Below, piece after piece: positions 2,994 through 51,028 of a stretch of 64,000 nt of DNA. This DNA comes from Escherichia coli (lineage in GTDB: Bacteria > Pseudomonadota > Gammaproteobacteria > Enterobacterales > Enterobacteriaceae). Positions within the stretch are counted from its first letter, which is position 1; every line of letters starts with the position of its first letter. Under the pieces are notes generated by a model. It saw only the letters and a program-made list of their open reading frames with translations. It had not been told where the DNA came from and did not search any database. The translations under genes were made by a program, and so were the position numbers. Location of the stretch: assembly GCF_003018235.1 (NCBI RefSeq), contig NZ_CP027437.1, one strand, 5' to 3'.

Positions 2994-3024
2994 AAAAAAA
3001 ACCCGCTGATTAAGCGGGTTTTGA
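2994..3024. terminator. Bidirectional terminator between convergent crcB and cspE
   Basis: aaaaaaa-acccgctgattaagcgggtt-ttg hairpin. Confidence 0.6.
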
Positions 3025-3041
3025 ATTCTTGCTGACGTATC

Positions 3042-3251
3042 TTACAGAGCGATTACGTTTGCAGCAGAAGGGCCTTTGGCACCGTTAGTGATTTCGAACT
3101 CTACGCGCTGACCTTCAGCAAGAGTTTTAAAACCATTAGTCTGGATTGCAGAGAAGTGTACGAACACGTCTTTGCTGCCGTCTTCCGGAGTAATGAAACC
3201 GAATCCTTTGGACTCATTAAACCACTTAACGTTACCTTTAATCTTAGACAT
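3042..3251 (-). CDS. cspE: Cold-shock-domain protein CspE
   Basis: ORF-track entry 3042..3335 trimmed to the ATG giving the 69-aa [20 protein letters not shown]... CspE sequence. Confidence 0.95.
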
Positions 3252-3425
3252 CAAAATTACCTTTACATGAAAAATAGACACAAATGCTGTGTCGGTTACC
3301 AGTACACCAATTGTGGTACGCTTTGTCCAGTGCAACTTTACTAAAAAGTGATAAAAGTCGCGTTATTTTTGATGTTAATTATTTTACTCATTGATTTTAA
3401 AGAGTTTACTAAAATTTCATTTGTC

Positions 3426-15495: not shown

Positions 15496-15542
15496 TGATT
15501 TAATAGATAGTATTCAGTATATGTATGAGTTCCACACCCATT

Positions 15543-16349
15543 ATGAAAGCATTCTGGCGTAACGCCGCGTTGCTCGCGGTTTCTCTGCTTCCCTTCTCTT
15601 CTGCCAACGCCGTGGCGTTGCAGGCAAAACAGTATGGCGATTTTGATCGCTATGTCCTGGCCCTCTCCTGGCAAACCGGATTTTGCCAGAGTCAACACGA
15701 TCGAAATCGTAACGAACGAGATGAATGTCGCCTGCAAACCGAAACGACCAACAAAGCTGATTTTCTGACCGTACATGGTCTGTGGCCAGGATTGCCTAAA
15801 TCGGTTGCTGCCCGTGGTGTTGATGAACGCCGCTGGATGCGCTTCGGTTGCGCTACCCGCCCAATCCCGAATCTACCAGAAGCGCGCGCCAGCCGAATGT
15901 GTTCATCGCCGGAAACTGGGTTATCGCTGGAAACGGCAGCTAAACTAAGTGAAGTCATGCCAGGAGCTGGCGGACGTTCCTGCCTGGAACGCTACGAATA
16001 TGCCAAACACGGTGCCTGCTTTGGTTTTGATCCAGACGCATACTTCGGCACGATGGTACGCCTGAATCAAGAAATTAAAGAGAGCGAAGCCGGAAAATTC
16101 CTTGCGGATAATTACGGTAAAACAGTGAGCCGCCGTGACTTTGACGCCGCCTTTGCCAAAAGCTGGGGAAAAGAGAACGTGAAAGCAGTTAAGCTAACGT
16201 GCCAGGGTAACCCTGCGTATTTGACTGAAATTCAGATCTCGATCAAAGCTGACGCCATCAACGCTCCGCTTTCTGCCAACTCATTCTTGCCACAACCACA
16301 CCCAGGCAACTGTGGCAAAACCTTTGTGATTGATAAAGCAGGTTATTAA
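15543..16349 (+). CDS. rna: Ribonuclease I (periplasmic RNase T2 family)
   Basis: Trimmed to MKAFWRNAALLAVSLLP... (268 aa) with signal peptide and RNase T2 motif. Confidence 0.93.
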   Translation: MKAFWRNAALLAVSLLPFSSANAVALQAKQYGDFDRYVLALSWQTGFCQSQHDRNRNERDECRLQTETTNKADFLTVHGLWPGLPKSVAARGVDERRWMRFGCATRPIPNLPEARASRMCSSPETGLSLETAAKLSEVMPGAGGRSCLERYEYAKHGACFGFDPDAYFGTMVRLNQEIKESEAGKFLADNYGKTVSRRDFDAAFAKSWGKENVKAVKLTCQGNPAYLTEIQISIKADAINAPLSANSFLPQPHPGNCGKTFVIDKAGY

Positions 16350-16496
16350 TCCTCTGATTTACAAAACACGCTAATTCGTCTTCCATAAACCATGACGATT
16401 AAGATTTATACATAATGCGCTACATTGAGGAATTCCCTGAATGTGACGCAAATCACTTCAAAGAGTGAGCAACAGTCAGTATCATCATGTGAGTTA

Positions 16497-16530
16497 AACC
16501 CTCGCCGCCTGACGGTGAGGGTTTTCTTTT
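16497..16530 (+). terminator. Probable terminator downstream of rna
   Basis: aaccctcgccgcctgacggtgagggtt hairpin followed by ttctttt. Confidence 0.45.
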
Positions 16531-16578
16531 GGGTATGTTTATCTGCGACACTCGCAGTACCGACGACATGGAGTAAAA

Positions 16579-16989
16579 ATGTCCAGACCAACTATCATCA
16601 TTAACGACCTGGATGCCGAACGCATCGATATTCTGCTGGAGCAACCCGCCTATGCTGGTTTGCCAATCGCCGACGCGTTAAACGCAGAGTTGGATCGCGC
16701 CCAAATGTGTTCGCCAGAAGAGATGCCACACGACGTGGTGACAATGAACAGCCGGGTTAAATTCCGCAATCTTAGCGATGGCGAAGTGCGTGTGCGCACG
16801 CTGGTGTATCCGGCAAAAATGACCGACAGCAATACTCAGCTTTCCGTTATGGCTCCGGTAGGTGCCGCACTGCTGGGGCTGCGCGTTGGCGATTCCATTC
16901 ACTGGGAACTTCCGGGCGGCGTTGCAACCCACCTTGAAGTACTGGAACTCGAATACCAGCCAGAAGCTGCTGGCGACTACCTGCTTTAA
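16579..16989 (+). CDS. rnk: Regulator of nucleoside diphosphate kinase Rnk (GreA/GreB-like)
   Basis: 136-aa [23 protein letters not shown]..., matches Rnk. Confidence 0.92.
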
Positions 16990-17024
16990 TCCCATCTGCA
17001 CAAGCGATAACTCGCTTTGCCCAG

Positions 17025-17049
17025 AGGATGCACTCGCATCCTCTTTCCG
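17025..17049 (+). terminator. Probable terminator after rnk
   Basis: gaggatgcactcgcatcctc hairpin followed by tttcc. Confidence 0.4.
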
Positions 17050-17131
17050 CTCAAATATCAACCAGATTTATCATTTTGCTCTTAAGCGCAGCATTCTAAT
17101 CTGAACTGGTTATTCATCTGCGGAACCTCAT

Positions 17132-17221
17132 ATGAGCGAAGCTCTCGGTATCACTGCATTTTATATATTCATAGCAGCAATTATTGTTGCTGCAGTGCTA
17201 TACCTTGAACAACGCTGGTAG
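17132..17221 (+). CDS. Hypothetical 29-aa single-transmembrane small protein (unverified)
   Basis: ATG..TAG ORF MSEALGITAFYIFIAAIIVAAVLYLEQRW with a 19-residue hydrophobic core flanked by charged residues; weak GGAA Shine-Dalgarno 6 nt upstream. Below the ORF-track size cutoff. Confidence 0.25.
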   Translation: MSEALGITAFYIFIAAIIVAAVLYLEQRW

Positions 17222-17344
17222 CGCCTGGTTTTATTTATTTTCCAGCTCAATAGCAAATTCAGATCAAATCAGCCTCGCAAATCATAGATTCATAACCAAT
17301 AATGTGCTGTTATGTATACATGCAAAAACAAGGAGAGAATGCTT

Positions 17345-17773
17345 ATGTACAAAACAATCATCATGCCAGTGGATGTTTTCGAAATGGAATTGAGCGACAA
17401 AGCGGTTCGCCACGCTGAATTCCTCGCCCAGGATGACGGAGTTATTCATCTACTTCACGTACTACCGGGGTCAGCCAGCCTGAGCCTGCACCGTTTTGCC
17501 GCTGATGTACGTCGTTTTGAAGAGCATCTGCAACATGAAGCAGAAGAACGTTTGCAAACGATGGTCAGCCACTTCACCATCGATCCTTCCCGCATTAAAC
17601 AACATGTCCGTTTTGGTAGCGTGCGGGATGAAGTCAATGAGTTGGCAGAAGAACTGGGGGCTGATGTTGTCGTTATCGGTTCGCGCAACCCATCGATTTC
17701 GACCCATCTGTTAGGTTCTAACGCCTCAAGCGTTATCCGCCACGCCAATCTGCCGGTGCTGGTTGTGCGTTAA
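17345..17773 (+). CDS. uspG: Universal stress protein G
   Basis: Trimmed to [21 protein letters not shown]... (142 aa); strong AAGGAG Shine-Dalgarno upstream. Confidence 0.92.
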
Positions 17774-17788
17774 TTGCCAGAATAAATA

Positions 17789-17866
17789 TCCCGCCCTGCC
17801 CGGAGCCATCCCGGCGGGGCTTTTTATTGCCATAAAAAAGCCGCCAGGTTTGACCCCGGCGGCTAA
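17789..17866. terminator. Two back-to-back terminator hairpins between convergent uspG and ahpF
   Basis: cccgcc...ggcggggcttttt (plus-strand sense) and aaaaaagccgcc...ggcggct (minus-strand sense). Confidence 0.55.
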
Positions 17867-17893
17867 GCAATTGCAGGTGAATCTTACTTCTTC

Positions 17894-19459
17894 TTATGCA
17901 GTTTTGGTGCGAATCAGGTAGTCAAAAGCACTCAGAGAGGCTTTGGCACCTTCGCCAGTGGCGATGATGATCTGCTTGTACGGAACCGTCGTACAGTCAC
18001 CCGCTGCGAACACGCCTTTCACGTTGGTTTCGCATTTCGCATCAATGATAATCTCGCCCATGCGGTTACGTTCGACTGCGCCTTCGAGCCAGTTGGTGTT
18101 CGGCAGCAGACCAATCTGCACGAAAATACCGGCCAGTTCGATGTTGTGAATATCGCCGCTGACACGATCTCGATATTCCAGACCTACGACTTTGCTACCG
18201 TCGCCTTTCACTTCCGTGGTTTGCGCATTCAGAATAATGTCGACGTTTTTCAGGCTGCGCAGTTTGTCCTGCAGAACCTGGTCGGCTTTCATTTCTGGCG
18301 CAAATTCCAGCAGCGTTACGTGCTCAACGATACCCGCCAGGTCAATTGCCGCTTCCACGCCGGAGTTACCGCCGCCGATAACCGCTACGCGTTTACCTTT
18401 AAACAGCGGGCCGTCGCAGTGCGGGCAGTAGGTCACGCCTTTGGTGCGATACTGATCTTCGCCCGGAACGTTCATGTTGCGCCATTTTGCACCGGTCGCC
18501 ACGATAATGCTGCGTGCTTTCAGTACCGCGCCAGAAGCTGTTTCAATCTGATGCAGGCCACCTTCAACCGCTGCCGGGATCAGTTTGCTGGCGCTCTGGC
18601 TGTCGATCACATCAACGTCGTATTCATCAACGTGAACTTTCAGCGCACCTGCCAGTTTCTGGCCTTCGGTCTTCGGTACAGAAATGTAGTTTTCGATATC
18701 AACGGTATCGAGGATCTGACCACCAAAACGTTCGCCCATCAAACCAGTACGGATACCTTTACGTGCGGAGTAAATTGCTGCCGCTGCACCCGCCGGGCCG
18801 GAACCGACGATTAATACGTCATAAGCATCACGCTTGTTCAGCTCTTCTGCCGCACGTTTTTCCGCGCCAGTATCAATTTTGGCGACGATTTCAGTCAACG
18901 TCATGCGACCCTGACCAAACTCTTTCCCGTTTACGAACACTGCCGGAACGCCCATCACGTTGCGATCGGTGATTTCGTTCTGGAAGGTGCCGCCGTCAAT
19001 TGCAGTGTGCTTGATGCGCGGGTTCAGTACGCTCATCAGATTCAGCGCCTGCACCACATCCGGGCAGTTGTGGCAAGAGAGCGAGTAATAGGTTTCGAAT
19101 TCAAAATCACCGTCAATATGGCGAATCTGCTCCAGCAGAGACTGCGCTTCTTTCGACGGATGACCACCGGTCCACAACAACGCCAGTACCAGCGAGGTAA
19201 ACTCGTGGCCCAGCGGGGAACCTGCAAAACGTGGCCCCTGGTTGGAACCTGGGTTAGTGATCAGGAAAGACGGCTTACGCACCGGCAAGCTGTTATCTTC
19301 TTTAAAGGTGACTTTGTCTGACAGTTCTGCGATTTCAGCCAACAGTTCCTTGATTTCTGCCGATTTAGCGCTGTCATCCAGCGTGGCAATTAACTCAACA
19401 GGCTTGGTCAATTTCTCAAGGTAAGCCTTGAGTTGAGTTTTCATATTTGTGTCGAGCAT
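17894..19459 (-). CDS. ahpF: Alkyl hydroperoxide reductase subunit F (flavoprotein)
   Basis: Trimmed to [16 protein letters not shown]... (521 aa); CxxC redox centres and FAD/NAD motifs; AGGAG Shine-Dalgarno. Confidence 0.96.
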
Positions 19460-19483
19460 GTTTATCTCCTGGGCTTTAAACAT

Positions 19484-19615
19484 CATCATGCAAGCGGCCT
19501 CTGCGGCTACCTGGATGCAGCTTGCATCATGGTGCGGGGAAGAAAATCGGGTGCCGCAGCACCCGAAGAATTAGGTGAATTTCCGAAGTATTTCGCGCCG
19601 GAGTTGGTAGCGCGA
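19484..19615 (-). promoter_or_regulatory. Structured ahpC-ahpF intergenic region (partial terminator/attenuator)
   Basis: Long imperfect inverted repeat catcatgcaagc...gcttgcatcatg plus a second hairpin cgcgccggagttggtagcgcg between the ahpC stop and ahpF start. Confidence 0.4.
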
Positions 19616-19629
19616 AAGACGAAGGAAAT

Positions 19630-20193
19630 TTAGATTTTACCAACCAGGTCCAGAGACGGAGCCAGAGTTGCTTCACCTTCTTTCCATTTAGCCGGGCAAA
19701 CTTCACCTGGGTGAGAAGCTACGTACTGTGCTGCTTTGATTTTACGCAGCAGGTCAGACGCGTCACGGCCAATGCCTTCAGCGGTAACTTCGATTGCCTG
19801 GATGATACCCTGCGGGTCAACAACGAAGGTCGCACGGTCAGCCAGACCTTCATCTTCACGCATGTTGTCGAAGTTACGGGTCAGGGCGCCAGTCGGGTCG
19901 CCGATCATCGCATATTTGATTTTAGCGATGGTTTCAGAGCTGCTGTGCCATGCTTTGTGGGTGAAGTGAGTATCGGTAGATACTGCGTATACGTCTACGC
20001 CCAGTTTCTGCAGTTCTTCGTAGTGGTCAGCAACGTCACCCAGTTCGGTCGGGCATACGAAAGTAAAGTCAGCCGGGTAGAAGAAGAAGACGCTCCAGCG
20101 GCCTTCGGTATCTTTTTCGGTGATTTCGATGAATTCGCCGTTTTTGAATGCCTGGTTTTTAAAAGGTTTAATTTTGGTGTTAATCAAGGACAT
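19630..20193 (-). CDS. ahpC: Alkyl hydroperoxide reductase subunit C (peroxiredoxin)
   Basis: 187-aa ORF with peroxidatic FTFVCPTE and resolving Cys motifs. Confidence 0.97.
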
Positions 20194-20564
20194 CTATACT
20201 TCCTCCGTGTTTTCGATGAGATGTAAGGTAACCAATTTTTGCCGATTCGGCTAATGCGTTTCCATTATCAAATCGATAAGTTTTACCTTACAACCTTCGT
20301 AAGACAACTTTGTGAACTTTGCACCGCCAGCGGCGATAAAAAGTAAAATGGCCCCCTTTCCAGGTGACCGTGTAATCTGAACTACCCTTTGGTATCTTCA
20401 GCGCCTGCCTGCAGGCTGAGGTGTTGCCCTTACAAATGCAACAACGACATGGATTACAACACCCTCATAAACAAAGGGCAATCACCTGATCTAAGCTCTT
20501 ACCTATGACAGTGATAGGTTATGCCTTTTACCCGACTTTTGCACTGACTGAAAAGGACAAATTA
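20194..20564. promoter_or_regulatory. Divergent ahpC/dsbG promoter region (OxyR-regulated by established knowledge)
   Basis: 371-bp intergenic region between divergent ahpC and dsbG; no OxyR site could be pinpointed by eye. Confidence 0.35.
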
Positions 20565-49437: not shown

Positions 49438-49590
49438 CTACTTCTTCGGTTCGTAAGCGAGAACAGCCTTAAACTCAATATTACGTTCCTTCACCGTAAA
49501 CTCACACAGCGAGTCGCGGACCAGAAGCGTAAATCCCAGCACCGTTAAACACAGCACTATGACTGCCACAAGGGCATATTTCGTCAGCAT
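49438..49590 (-). CDS. Hok-family membrane toxin, copy 1 (in-frame Mok extension from the ATG at 49626)
   Basis: 50-aa [50 protein letters not shown]; GGAGG Shine-Dalgarno lies inside the upstream mok frame ([12 protein letters not shown]). Confidence 0.8.
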
Positions 49591-49624
49591 GTTTATATTG
49601 CCTCCATGCGAAGAAGGGACTACC

Positions 49625-49692
49625 ATCCGAGTTGTTGAGGTTCGGAGTGGCAGCCCCAGGATTGATAGAAATATCTCCTGGGGCTTCATCTT
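49625..49692 (+). ncRNA. Putative Sok-like antisense RNA, copy 1 (boundaries approximate)
   Basis: Plus-strand hairpin gccccagg-N16-cctggggc followed by ttcatcttt, antisense to the mok initiation region. Confidence 0.3.
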
Positions 49693-49940
49693 TCCAGATC
49701 TCAGAGTTAACCTGAAACCGGAAAGCTTCAGGCACCCGCAGCTATCTTACCTTTCCTCAACAAAATAGCTGTTTATTTATACAGCAAATCCTGTTTCGGA
49801 CTTCTGTTGGCAAAACTGATCATTGCCCTTAAAACGACATCGCCCGCAGCCATTGCTGACCGCGGGCGAAAGTGTAAAACAGGTGCCTTACCACCCTGAC
49901 CTGACAACCGGATATGCGGGGATTGCTCCCCGCACAACGG

Positions 49941-50093
49941 CTACTTCTTCGGTTCGTAAGCGAGAACAGCCCTGAACTCAATATTACGTTCGTTCACCGT
50001 AAACTCACACAGCGAGTCTCCGACCAGAAGCGTAAATCCCAGCACCGTTAAACACAGCACTATGACTGCCACAAGGGCATATTTCGTCAGCAT
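49941..50093 (-). CDS. Hok-family membrane toxin, copy 2 (Mok extension from the ATG at 50129)
   Basis: 50-aa [50 protein letters not shown]. Confidence 0.8.
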
Positions 50094-50127
50094 GTTTATA
50101 TTGCCTCCATGCGAAGAAGGGACTACC

Positions 50128-50196
50128 ATCCAAATTGTTCAGGTTTGGGTAGGTAGCCCCAGGGTTGATAGAAATATCGTCCTGGGGCTTCATCTT
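50128..50196 (+). ncRNA. Putative Sok-like antisense RNA, copy 2 (boundaries approximate)
   Basis: Conserved gccccagg...cctggggc hairpin plus U-tract. Confidence 0.3.
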
Positions 50197-50444
50197 TCCA
50201 GACCTCAGAGTTAACCTGAAACCGGAAAGCTTCAGGCACCCGCTGTTATCTTACCCTTCCTCAGCAAAATAGCTGTTTATTTATACAGTGAATCCTGTTT
50301 CGGACTTCTGTTGGCAAAACTGATCATTGCCCTTAAAACGACATCGCCCGCAGCCATTGCTGACCGCGGGCGAAAGTGTAAAACAGGTGCCTTACCACCC
50401 TGACCTGACAACCGGATATGCGGGGATTACTCCCCGCACAACGG

Positions 50445-50597
50445 CTACTTCTTCGGTTCGTAAGCGAGAACAGCCTTAAACTCAATATTACGTTCCTTCA
50501 CCGTAAACTCACACAGCGAGTCTCCGACCAGAAGCGTAAATCCCAGTACCGTCAAACACAGCACTATGACTGCCACAAGGGCATATTTCGTCAGCAT
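50445..50597 (-). CDS. hokE: Hok-family membrane toxin, copy 3 (matches the HokE sequence as I recall it; Mok extension from the ATG at 50633)
   Basis: 50-aa [50 protein letters not shown]. Confidence 0.8.
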
Positions 50598-50631
50598 GTT
50601 TATATTGCCTCCATGCGAAGAAGGGACTACC

Positions 50632-50700
50632 ATCCAAATTGTCTGGTTTGGAGTGGCAGCCCCAGGGTTGATAGAAATATCTCCTGGGGCTTCATCTTTC
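50632..50700 (+). ncRNA. Putative Sok-like antisense RNA, copy 3 (boundaries approximate)
   Basis: Conserved gccccagg...cctggggc hairpin plus U-tract. Confidence 0.3.
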
Positions 50701-51028
50701 CAGACCTCAGAGTAAACCTGAAACCGGAAAGCTTCAGGCACCCGCCGTTATCTTACCCTTCCTCAGCAAAATAGCTGTTTATTTATACAGTGAGTCCTGT
50801 TTCGGACTTCTCACTCCTCATTTGATCAACTGAAGCTGAACCCGTTTTTTTCTGCATGCCTCAATCGTCAAAATTCTTCGCCACCAGCCAGCTCTGCCAT
50901 AACTTGTCACATTGCAAAAGTAGCCAAATTGCTTCAGTCACCATCACCAAAAAAAAGAAACATTCCAGAACTTCCGCATCTCGCCCAGCCGCTCCGACTT
51001 CTATACTGAATAGAAAACGCCAACATAA

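Follow-up and report, generated by a model that had tools for sequence, protein, structure and literature searches.

The window analyzed here is a 64-kb stretch of Escherichia coli DNA in which rna (15525-16349) is followed by rnk, a spacer of exactly 355 bp (16990-17344), uspG and, on the opposite strand, ahpF (17894-19489). The features of the spacer and its flanks are collected in Table 1. The original prediction described the spacer as a gap from which ybdR is missing, and both its coordinates and a tblastn search with K-12 YbdR confirm this description: no match was found across the whole 64-kb window (best E = 0.15), and no YbdR-homologous ORF of ~412 aa, encoding a Zn-dependent alcohol dehydrogenase, lies between yldA and uspG in the window. 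The K-12 gene order given in that prediction, with ybdR between uspG and rnk, is likewise correct, MG1655 being arranged as uspG - ybdR - yldA - rnk. An ATG-initiated ORF of 29 codons, whose product is MSEALGITAFYIFIAAIIVAAVLYLEQRW, occupies the predicted position within the spacer and is preceded by the weak Shine-Dalgarno sequence that had been pointed out; in the alignment, a purine-rich GGAA, GGGGA, or AGGA is preserved at this position across genera.

Table 1. Features of the rnk-uspG interval and its flanks, in window coordinates.
Feature	Position	Strand	Basis and remarks
rnk CDS (nucleoside diphosphate kinase regulator)	16579..16989	+	ORF; RefSeq annotation of identical ST2747 sequence; left flank common to both haplotypes
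rnk 3' double hairpin, terminator-like	16998..17044	+	RNA fold -24.2 kcal/mol, z = -6.2
Haplotype-specific segment, "W type"	17051..17326 (276 bp)	.	No significant blastn match to K-12 (L001 4473-6083)
Shine-Dalgarno-like GGAA, weak, putative	17122..17125	+	6 nt before yldA ATG; read from the sequence
yldA, W-class allele, 29-aa small membrane protein YldA	17132..17221	+	RefSeq WP_001287361.1; NCBIfam NF041476
Imperfect inverted repeat CATAGATTCATAAC N12 GTTATGTATACATG	17283..17322	.	14-nt arms, 79% complementary; 23-62 nt 5' of uspG ATG
uspG Shine-Dalgarno AAGGAG	17330..17335	+	Sequence; K-12 homology back from 17327 (blastn)
uspG CDS	17345..17773	+	Annotation; first ~60 nt form the right edge of the diverged tract

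The double hairpin downstream of rnk was not equaled in stability by any shuffled sequence (0/200) and includes a perfect 9-nt inverted repeat (17023-17031 / 17036-17044); since just three U residues follow the stem, its role as a terminator is putative. A scan of positions 16900-17900 returned no sigma-70 consensus promoter, and the sole terminator-like site in the same region lies 3' of uspG on the minus strand and was assigned to ahpF. Rfam gave no real match within the interval, its single hit being a sub-threshold match to a eukaryotic snoRNA model, and RNA folding around yldA, in its 5' region and in the sequence that follows it, and in the uspG leader predicted structures no more stable than those of shuffled sequences. 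The block that holds the inverted repeat upstream of uspG is near-invariant in Escherichia of the W type and still recognizable in W-like Citrobacter, and the repeat is a possible promoter element or operator of uspG.

Just 5' of rnk, at 16425-16533 (+), the window also matches rnk_leader (RF01771; 124.9 bits), a known cis-regulatory leader that is common to K-12.

Identity, conservation, and possible partners of YldA

The 29-codon ORF is neither unannotated nor novel; it is the already known and annotated gene yldA. RefSeq names it "small membrane protein YldA" (WP_001287361.1) in E. coli sequences identical to the window, for instance ST2747, and its product matches the NCBIfam equivalog NF041476 with 59 bits (E = 3.2e-16; cut-off 45) over profile positions 1-29 of 29. 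The Pfam family PF23689 (YldA-like) scores the window allele at 22.9 bits (E = 9e-5), under its gathering threshold of 27, versus 73.6 bits for the K-12 allele, and the model appears to be centered on the latter class. MG1655 annotates yldA (b4734; YP_009518757.1; product MAEAFYILIGFLIMAAIIVMAVLYLENHS) between ybdR and rnk, and a study that combined chromosomal SPA tags with immunoblots detected K-12 YldA as one of 36 small proteins (VanOrsdel 2018, PMC6001520). The ORF in the gap is therefore not a distinction from K-12, whose own yldA the original prediction overlooked; and because K-12 carries both yldA and ybdR, the window ORF is no substitute for ybdR.

The two alleles share their placement ~140 bp 3' of rnk on the same strand, their length of 29 aa, and their RefSeq name, together with the residues M1, E3, A21, V22, L25, and E26 and the C-terminal half AAIIV.AVLYLE. 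They differ in that their amino acid identity ranges from 52% (global) to 58% (local), with DNA identity undetectable, and in their C termini, where the QRW of the window allele is near the RHW of most family members, whereas the K-12 allele ends in NHS. Their downstream neighbors are also different: uspG on the same strand in the window, and a convergent ybdR 3 nt away in K-12. Experimental detection of the protein concerns the K-12 allele; the window allele is known from sequence.

The conservation of yldA extends well beyond these two alleles. The gene lies ~140 bp past the rnk stop codon, on the same strand, in the window, in K-12, and in about 35 enterobacterial loci, and it occurs both with and without ybdR. 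From rnk-centered loci of Escherichia, Citrobacter, Enterobacter, Lelliottia, Leclercia, Kosakonia, Phytobacter, and relatives we gathered 32 distinct YldA sequences, every one of 29 aa, which align without indels to the consensus M.EIL.ITL.FLI..AIIV.AVLYLERHW; the six residues named above are invariant among them, and the window allele has all six. Residues 5-23 have a mean Kyte-Doolittle hydropathy of 2.67, a value typical of a membrane helix, which supports a predicted single helix in the inner membrane and agrees with the single-pass shape that the original prediction had assigned to the ORF.

Length by itself provides no evidence of coding, since 4334 of 5000 spacers simulated with a first-order Markov model (87%) contained an ATG-initiated ORF of 29 codons or more. 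This frequency, the weak Shine-Dalgarno sequence, and the lack of a consensus promoter in the scan are what would be expected of a chance ORF in noncoding DNA, in which the conserved element would be an RNA or a regulatory site. We give this explanation almost no credence in view of the substitutions: relative to E. albertii, the window allele shows six synonymous and no nonsynonymous differences over 87 coding bases. The fixed length of 29 codons and the invariant residues persist across genera even where the DNA can no longer be aligned, a tagged protein was obtained from the K-12 ortholog, and the interval has neither an Rfam match nor significant RNA structure. Based on these comparisons, it is conservation and family membership, and not length, that mark the ORF as a real gene.

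A whole-word search of the searchable literature returned no reported function of YldA in E. coli. A modest lead comes from a resemblance to YoaI (b1788, 34 aa), a small protein of the inner membrane that binds the sensor kinase EnvZ and thereby activates it (PMC11429745, PMC12648545), and we found no mention of this link in the searchable literature. Against the NCBIfam model of YoaI (NF041475; cut-off 45), YldA of the window reaches 30 bits (E = 4e-7) and that of K-12 22.5 bits; YldA is not a member of the YoaI family, and the two proteins may be distantly related or act in the same way. In an hhalign comparison, the YldA alignment and YoaI were related with 91.7% probability over 27 columns. 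Similarly, YoaI scored 19.1 bits against the YldA HMM built here, a value that no shuffle attained, whether of the full sequence (5000) or of the hydrophobic core alone (5000), and six other small membrane proteins scored at most 3.1 bits. Both proteins consist of a single hydrophobic helix between glutamates, with aligned E-x3-I-T ... V-x2-V-L ... E-R. Unlike YldA, YoaI has 5 additional N-terminal residues, is encoded at the yeaK-yeaL locus, and is PhoB-regulated.

A tentative model, which we regard as possible but on the unlikely side, is that YldA would insert in the inner membrane as one helix, with the invariant E3 and E26 on either side of it, and may, through contact between helices, modulate a larger membrane protein. 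A histidine kinase is one candidate for this partner because YoaI, the closest characterized relative, binds EnvZ. With somewhat less than even odds, YldA could instead be a real membrane peptide whose partner is not a sensor kinase but a transporter, a respiratory or stress complex, or the membrane itself, its likeness to YoaI reflecting a shared helix architecture. Characterized small membrane proteins bind many classes of targets (PMC12648545), YldA stays under the YoaI family cut-off, and no kinase is found among the neighbors rnk, ybdR, and uspG, all of which agrees with a different partner. The positional similarity to YoaI, which exceeds that of all 10000 shuffles, including those that preserve the polar ends, and the reciprocal NCBIfam match (E = 4e-7) argue against architecture as the whole explanation, although a similarity between two helices of some 30 residues could be convergent. 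The resemblance thus supplies a testable class of partners for an uncharacterized small protein.

Two haplotypes at the rnk-uspG locus

The window is 98.5% identical to K-12 up to position 17050 and 98.1% identical from 17327. Between these points, the 276 bp of the window stand opposite 1611 bp in K-12, which contain yldA(K), ybdR, and the uspG upstream region, and blastn detected no significant DNA similarity between the two segments. Within uspG, mismatches to K-12 fall at positions 5, 8, 17, 26, 32, 35, and 59 from the ATG, all third codon positions, and are then followed by a background of ~2%; because these seven differences are concentrated in the first 60 nt, the diverged tract ends within uspG. 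Judged from the alignments, the difference between the window type (W) and the K-12 type (K) is a replacement rather than a plain indel with scars. The deletion scars or target-site features that had been anticipated from an alignment to the ybdR-bearing locus did not materialize: the borders of the segment lack both direct repeats and target-site duplications, and sensitive blastn and blastx searches for a ybdR remnant in the interval yielded matches at chance level only.

Both types are frequent. Among 5426 complete E. coli genomes, the full window spacer was found in 1816 and the W-specific 276 bp (17051-17326) in 1817; the remaining genomes with a match align only to the first 57-61 bases of the spacer, which correspond to the rnk terminator. 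In 3605 complete genomes we found the K-12 segment, including its yldA(K) and ybdR, so that the W and K counts add up to 5422, the number of genomes that match the locus at all. The W type occurs in ATCC 11775, Nissle 1917, ST131, APEC O1, 042, and SMS-3-5, and the K type in K-12, O111, and O157:H7. In this comparison, which covers a handful of strains, the W type falls in phylogroups that we take to be B2 (ATCC 11775, Nissle 1917, ST131, and APEC O1), D (042), and F (SMS-3-5), and the K type in what are presumably phylogroups A (K-12), B1 (O111), and E (O157:H7). A literature search for ybdR together with phylogroup found nothing.

Our findings suggest, with a probability of about 80%, that the interval is the ordinary sequence between rnk and uspG in one of the two haplotypes that are common in E. 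coli. A locus without ybdR is a frequent and old natural variant and not an event peculiar to this genome.

One genome stands apart from both types: in E. coli HS-02 (NZ_CP172818.1), only 56% of the W-specific segment is matched, at 94.4% identity, and yldA is unannotated. Its spacer may be degraded or may represent a third variant.

Plain deletions of ybdR do occur in the family, and they allow a direct comparison with the window. In E. coli HH97 (L083 3077-3421), a deletion inside a K-type locus left a 192-bp ybdR pseudogene fragment and changed the 3' end of the yldA ORF, now 141 nt; this deletion is independent and recent. In Enterobacter asburiae TN152 (L056 1057-1166), ~31 C-terminal codons of ybdR directly follow yldA (blastx E = 2e-5), a scar which shows that ybdR was lost repeatedly in the family. 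HH97, TN152, and Lelliottia thus resemble the window in their resulting order, rnk-yldA-uspG, but their yldA and its flanks are still homologous to those of ybdR-bearing relatives; HH97 and TN152 retain ybdR fragments, whereas the window has none and carries a yldA of another allele class. These cases lend precedent to the idea that the spacer arose, in this strain or in a recent ancestor, through simple deletion of ybdR from a locus like that of K-12, an idea that nevertheless has a negligible chance of being right. The window preserves no remnant of ybdR, its yldA and both noncoding stretches are without DNA homology to K-12, the segment lacks flanking direct repeats, and the arrangement is common to one third of E. 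coli genomes and to E. albertii. A plain deletion of ybdR in this strain is refuted by the collinearity with E. albertii combined with the missing K-12 homology across the segment.

Origin of the two haplotypes

Through the spacer, the window is collinear with Escherichia sp. MOD1-EC7003 (L003; 94.7% over 8.9 kb), with a divergent species representative labeled "E. coli" (L004; 92.5%), and with E. albertii (L005; 89.7%). The W spacer diverges from each of them about as much as the surrounding 9-10 kb do, and collinearity is unbroken. By parsimony, this collinearity within Escherichia, along with the occurrence of W in B2, D, and F and of K in A, B1, and E, points to W as the resident haplotype and to K as a later import. 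We lean towards this reading, in which homologous recombination would have replaced the resident W type in the lineage leading to A, B1, and E, K-12 included. The incoming DNA, yldA(K)-ybdR-uspG promoter, would have come from another enterobacterium, with breakpoints at the rnk terminator and ~60 nt inside uspG. The original prediction had left two options, that this genome lacks ybdR or that the reference gained it; a gain in the reference fits better, and a deletion here is disfavored by the collinearity across Escherichia.

The opposite history deserves a minor but real share of belief. It holds that yldA(K) with ybdR is the vertically inherited state of Escherichia and that W was imported or spread into E. 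albertii, other Escherichia, and phylogroups B2, D, and F, or else that both types form an old polymorphism predating the split. Within Enterobacteriaceae, the arrangement with ybdR between rnk and uspG is widespread and the more common one, with examples in Salmonella, C. sedlakii, and Enterobacter. In DNA identity to Salmonella, K-12 ybdR (80.5-81%) is on a par with rnk (82%) and uspG (79.5%), and such a distance is expected under vertical descent. A search for a donor of the K-12 segment among the loci of 80 enterobacterial species found no near-identical one; the best candidates, Salmonella and C. sedlakii at ~80-81% DNA identity, did not exceed the flanks in similarity. The K-12 uspG upstream region is also closest to Salmonella and C. 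sedlakii (0.78-0.80 in an 80-nt identity table, from which the strongest groupings alone were used because its baseline of 0.6-0.7 is high), and W-like spacers reach beyond Escherichia into Citrobacter sp. R56, Citrobacter NCU1, and C. amalonaticus S646. Against vertical inheritance of K stands the background-level divergence of the collinear W spacer, at 94.7%, 92.5%, and 89.7% identity, which fits vertical descent within Escherichia; several independent imports, or a polymorphism maintained for a very long time, would be required otherwise. In addition, among the sampled Escherichia, a set without E. fergusonii, E. marmotae, and E. ruysiae, the K type was seen in E. coli alone.

Since W-like spacers occur in some Citrobacter, with K-like yldA in others (C. 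amalonaticus AUH, C. sedlakii, and C. koseri), both classes cross genus borders. Four states of the spacer exist in the family: yldA alone, yldA with ybdR, ybdR alone (Salmonella), and neither, the last found in the C. freundii complex, Kluyvera, and most Kosakonia. In the type strains of Salmonella enterica subsp. diarizonae (L021) and arizonae (L022), for instance, ybdR ends ~92 bp after rnk and yldA is undetectable, leaving ybdR only. This diversity of states indicates that the rnk-uspG locus is prone to loss and exchange.

A more ambitious reading, which we consider improbable, would make the spacer an old two-allele cassette spanning genera that has been kept or re-exchanged in Escherichia and Citrobacter, each yldA class (W and K) being paired with a uspG upstream region of its own, in the presence or absence of ybdR, and YldA, as a remote paralog of YoaI, tuning a sensor kinase in the membrane. 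If that were true, the allele classes would differ in partner or regulation, and the wiring of stress responses would differ between B2/D/F and A/B1/E.

The main value of these results is one of correction, as the ORF is a named small protein gene with experimental support and the absence of ybdR a frequent natural variant; the haplotype structure and the resemblance to YoaI are modest additions to a known gene. They also show that K-12 is unrepresentative of one third of E. coli, B2 pathogens included, at the rnk-uspG locus. The locus offers a clean example of homologous replacement in which the exchanged segments have diverged roughly to the level seen between genera.

Transcriptional context and other features of the window

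In the W type, uspG follows yldA on the same strand after 123 bp, and RNA folding predicted no stable hairpin between them; given the shared direction, the short distance, and the lack of an intervening terminator, the two genes may be co-transcribed. In K-12, by contrast, yldA and ybdR are convergent, with stop codons 3 nt apart, and ExcludonFinder lists ybdR-yldA as a convergent excludon (PMC12288877). The uspG upstream region also differs between the W type and K-12. Because of these differences in yldA context and in the region upstream of uspG, the expression of both genes may differ between the two groups of E. coli, and, since the yldA allele differs as well, results obtained in K-12 on the regulation of yldA or uspG may not transfer to strains of the W type.

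Several further features lie outside the interval. The alignment of the window to K-12 also breaks at 19598, in the ahpF-ahpC spacer (window ~19598-19760; L001 8353-8460; L088 358-487; L090 591-836). In ST2747, which matches the window, this spacer measures 170 bp; SMS-3-5 has a shorter one (128 bp), and K-12 and 042 have a longer one (244 bp). This variation may reflect the copy number of a repeat element. Beyond ahpC, a match to the STnc70 sRNA was found at 20338-20431 (-), with 44.1 bits against a gathering score of 40. A cspA-thermoregulator model matched at 2994-3352 (-) with 123 bits, a position that synteny with 042 and SMS-3-5 places in the cspE region. Near entD, three tandem matches to the sok antitoxin RNA on the minus strand, of ~84 bits each (49582-49737, 50085-50241, and 50589-50743), imply a triplicated toxin-antitoxin module of the hok/sok type (hokE); at the same place, strain 042 has two annotated copies of hokE.
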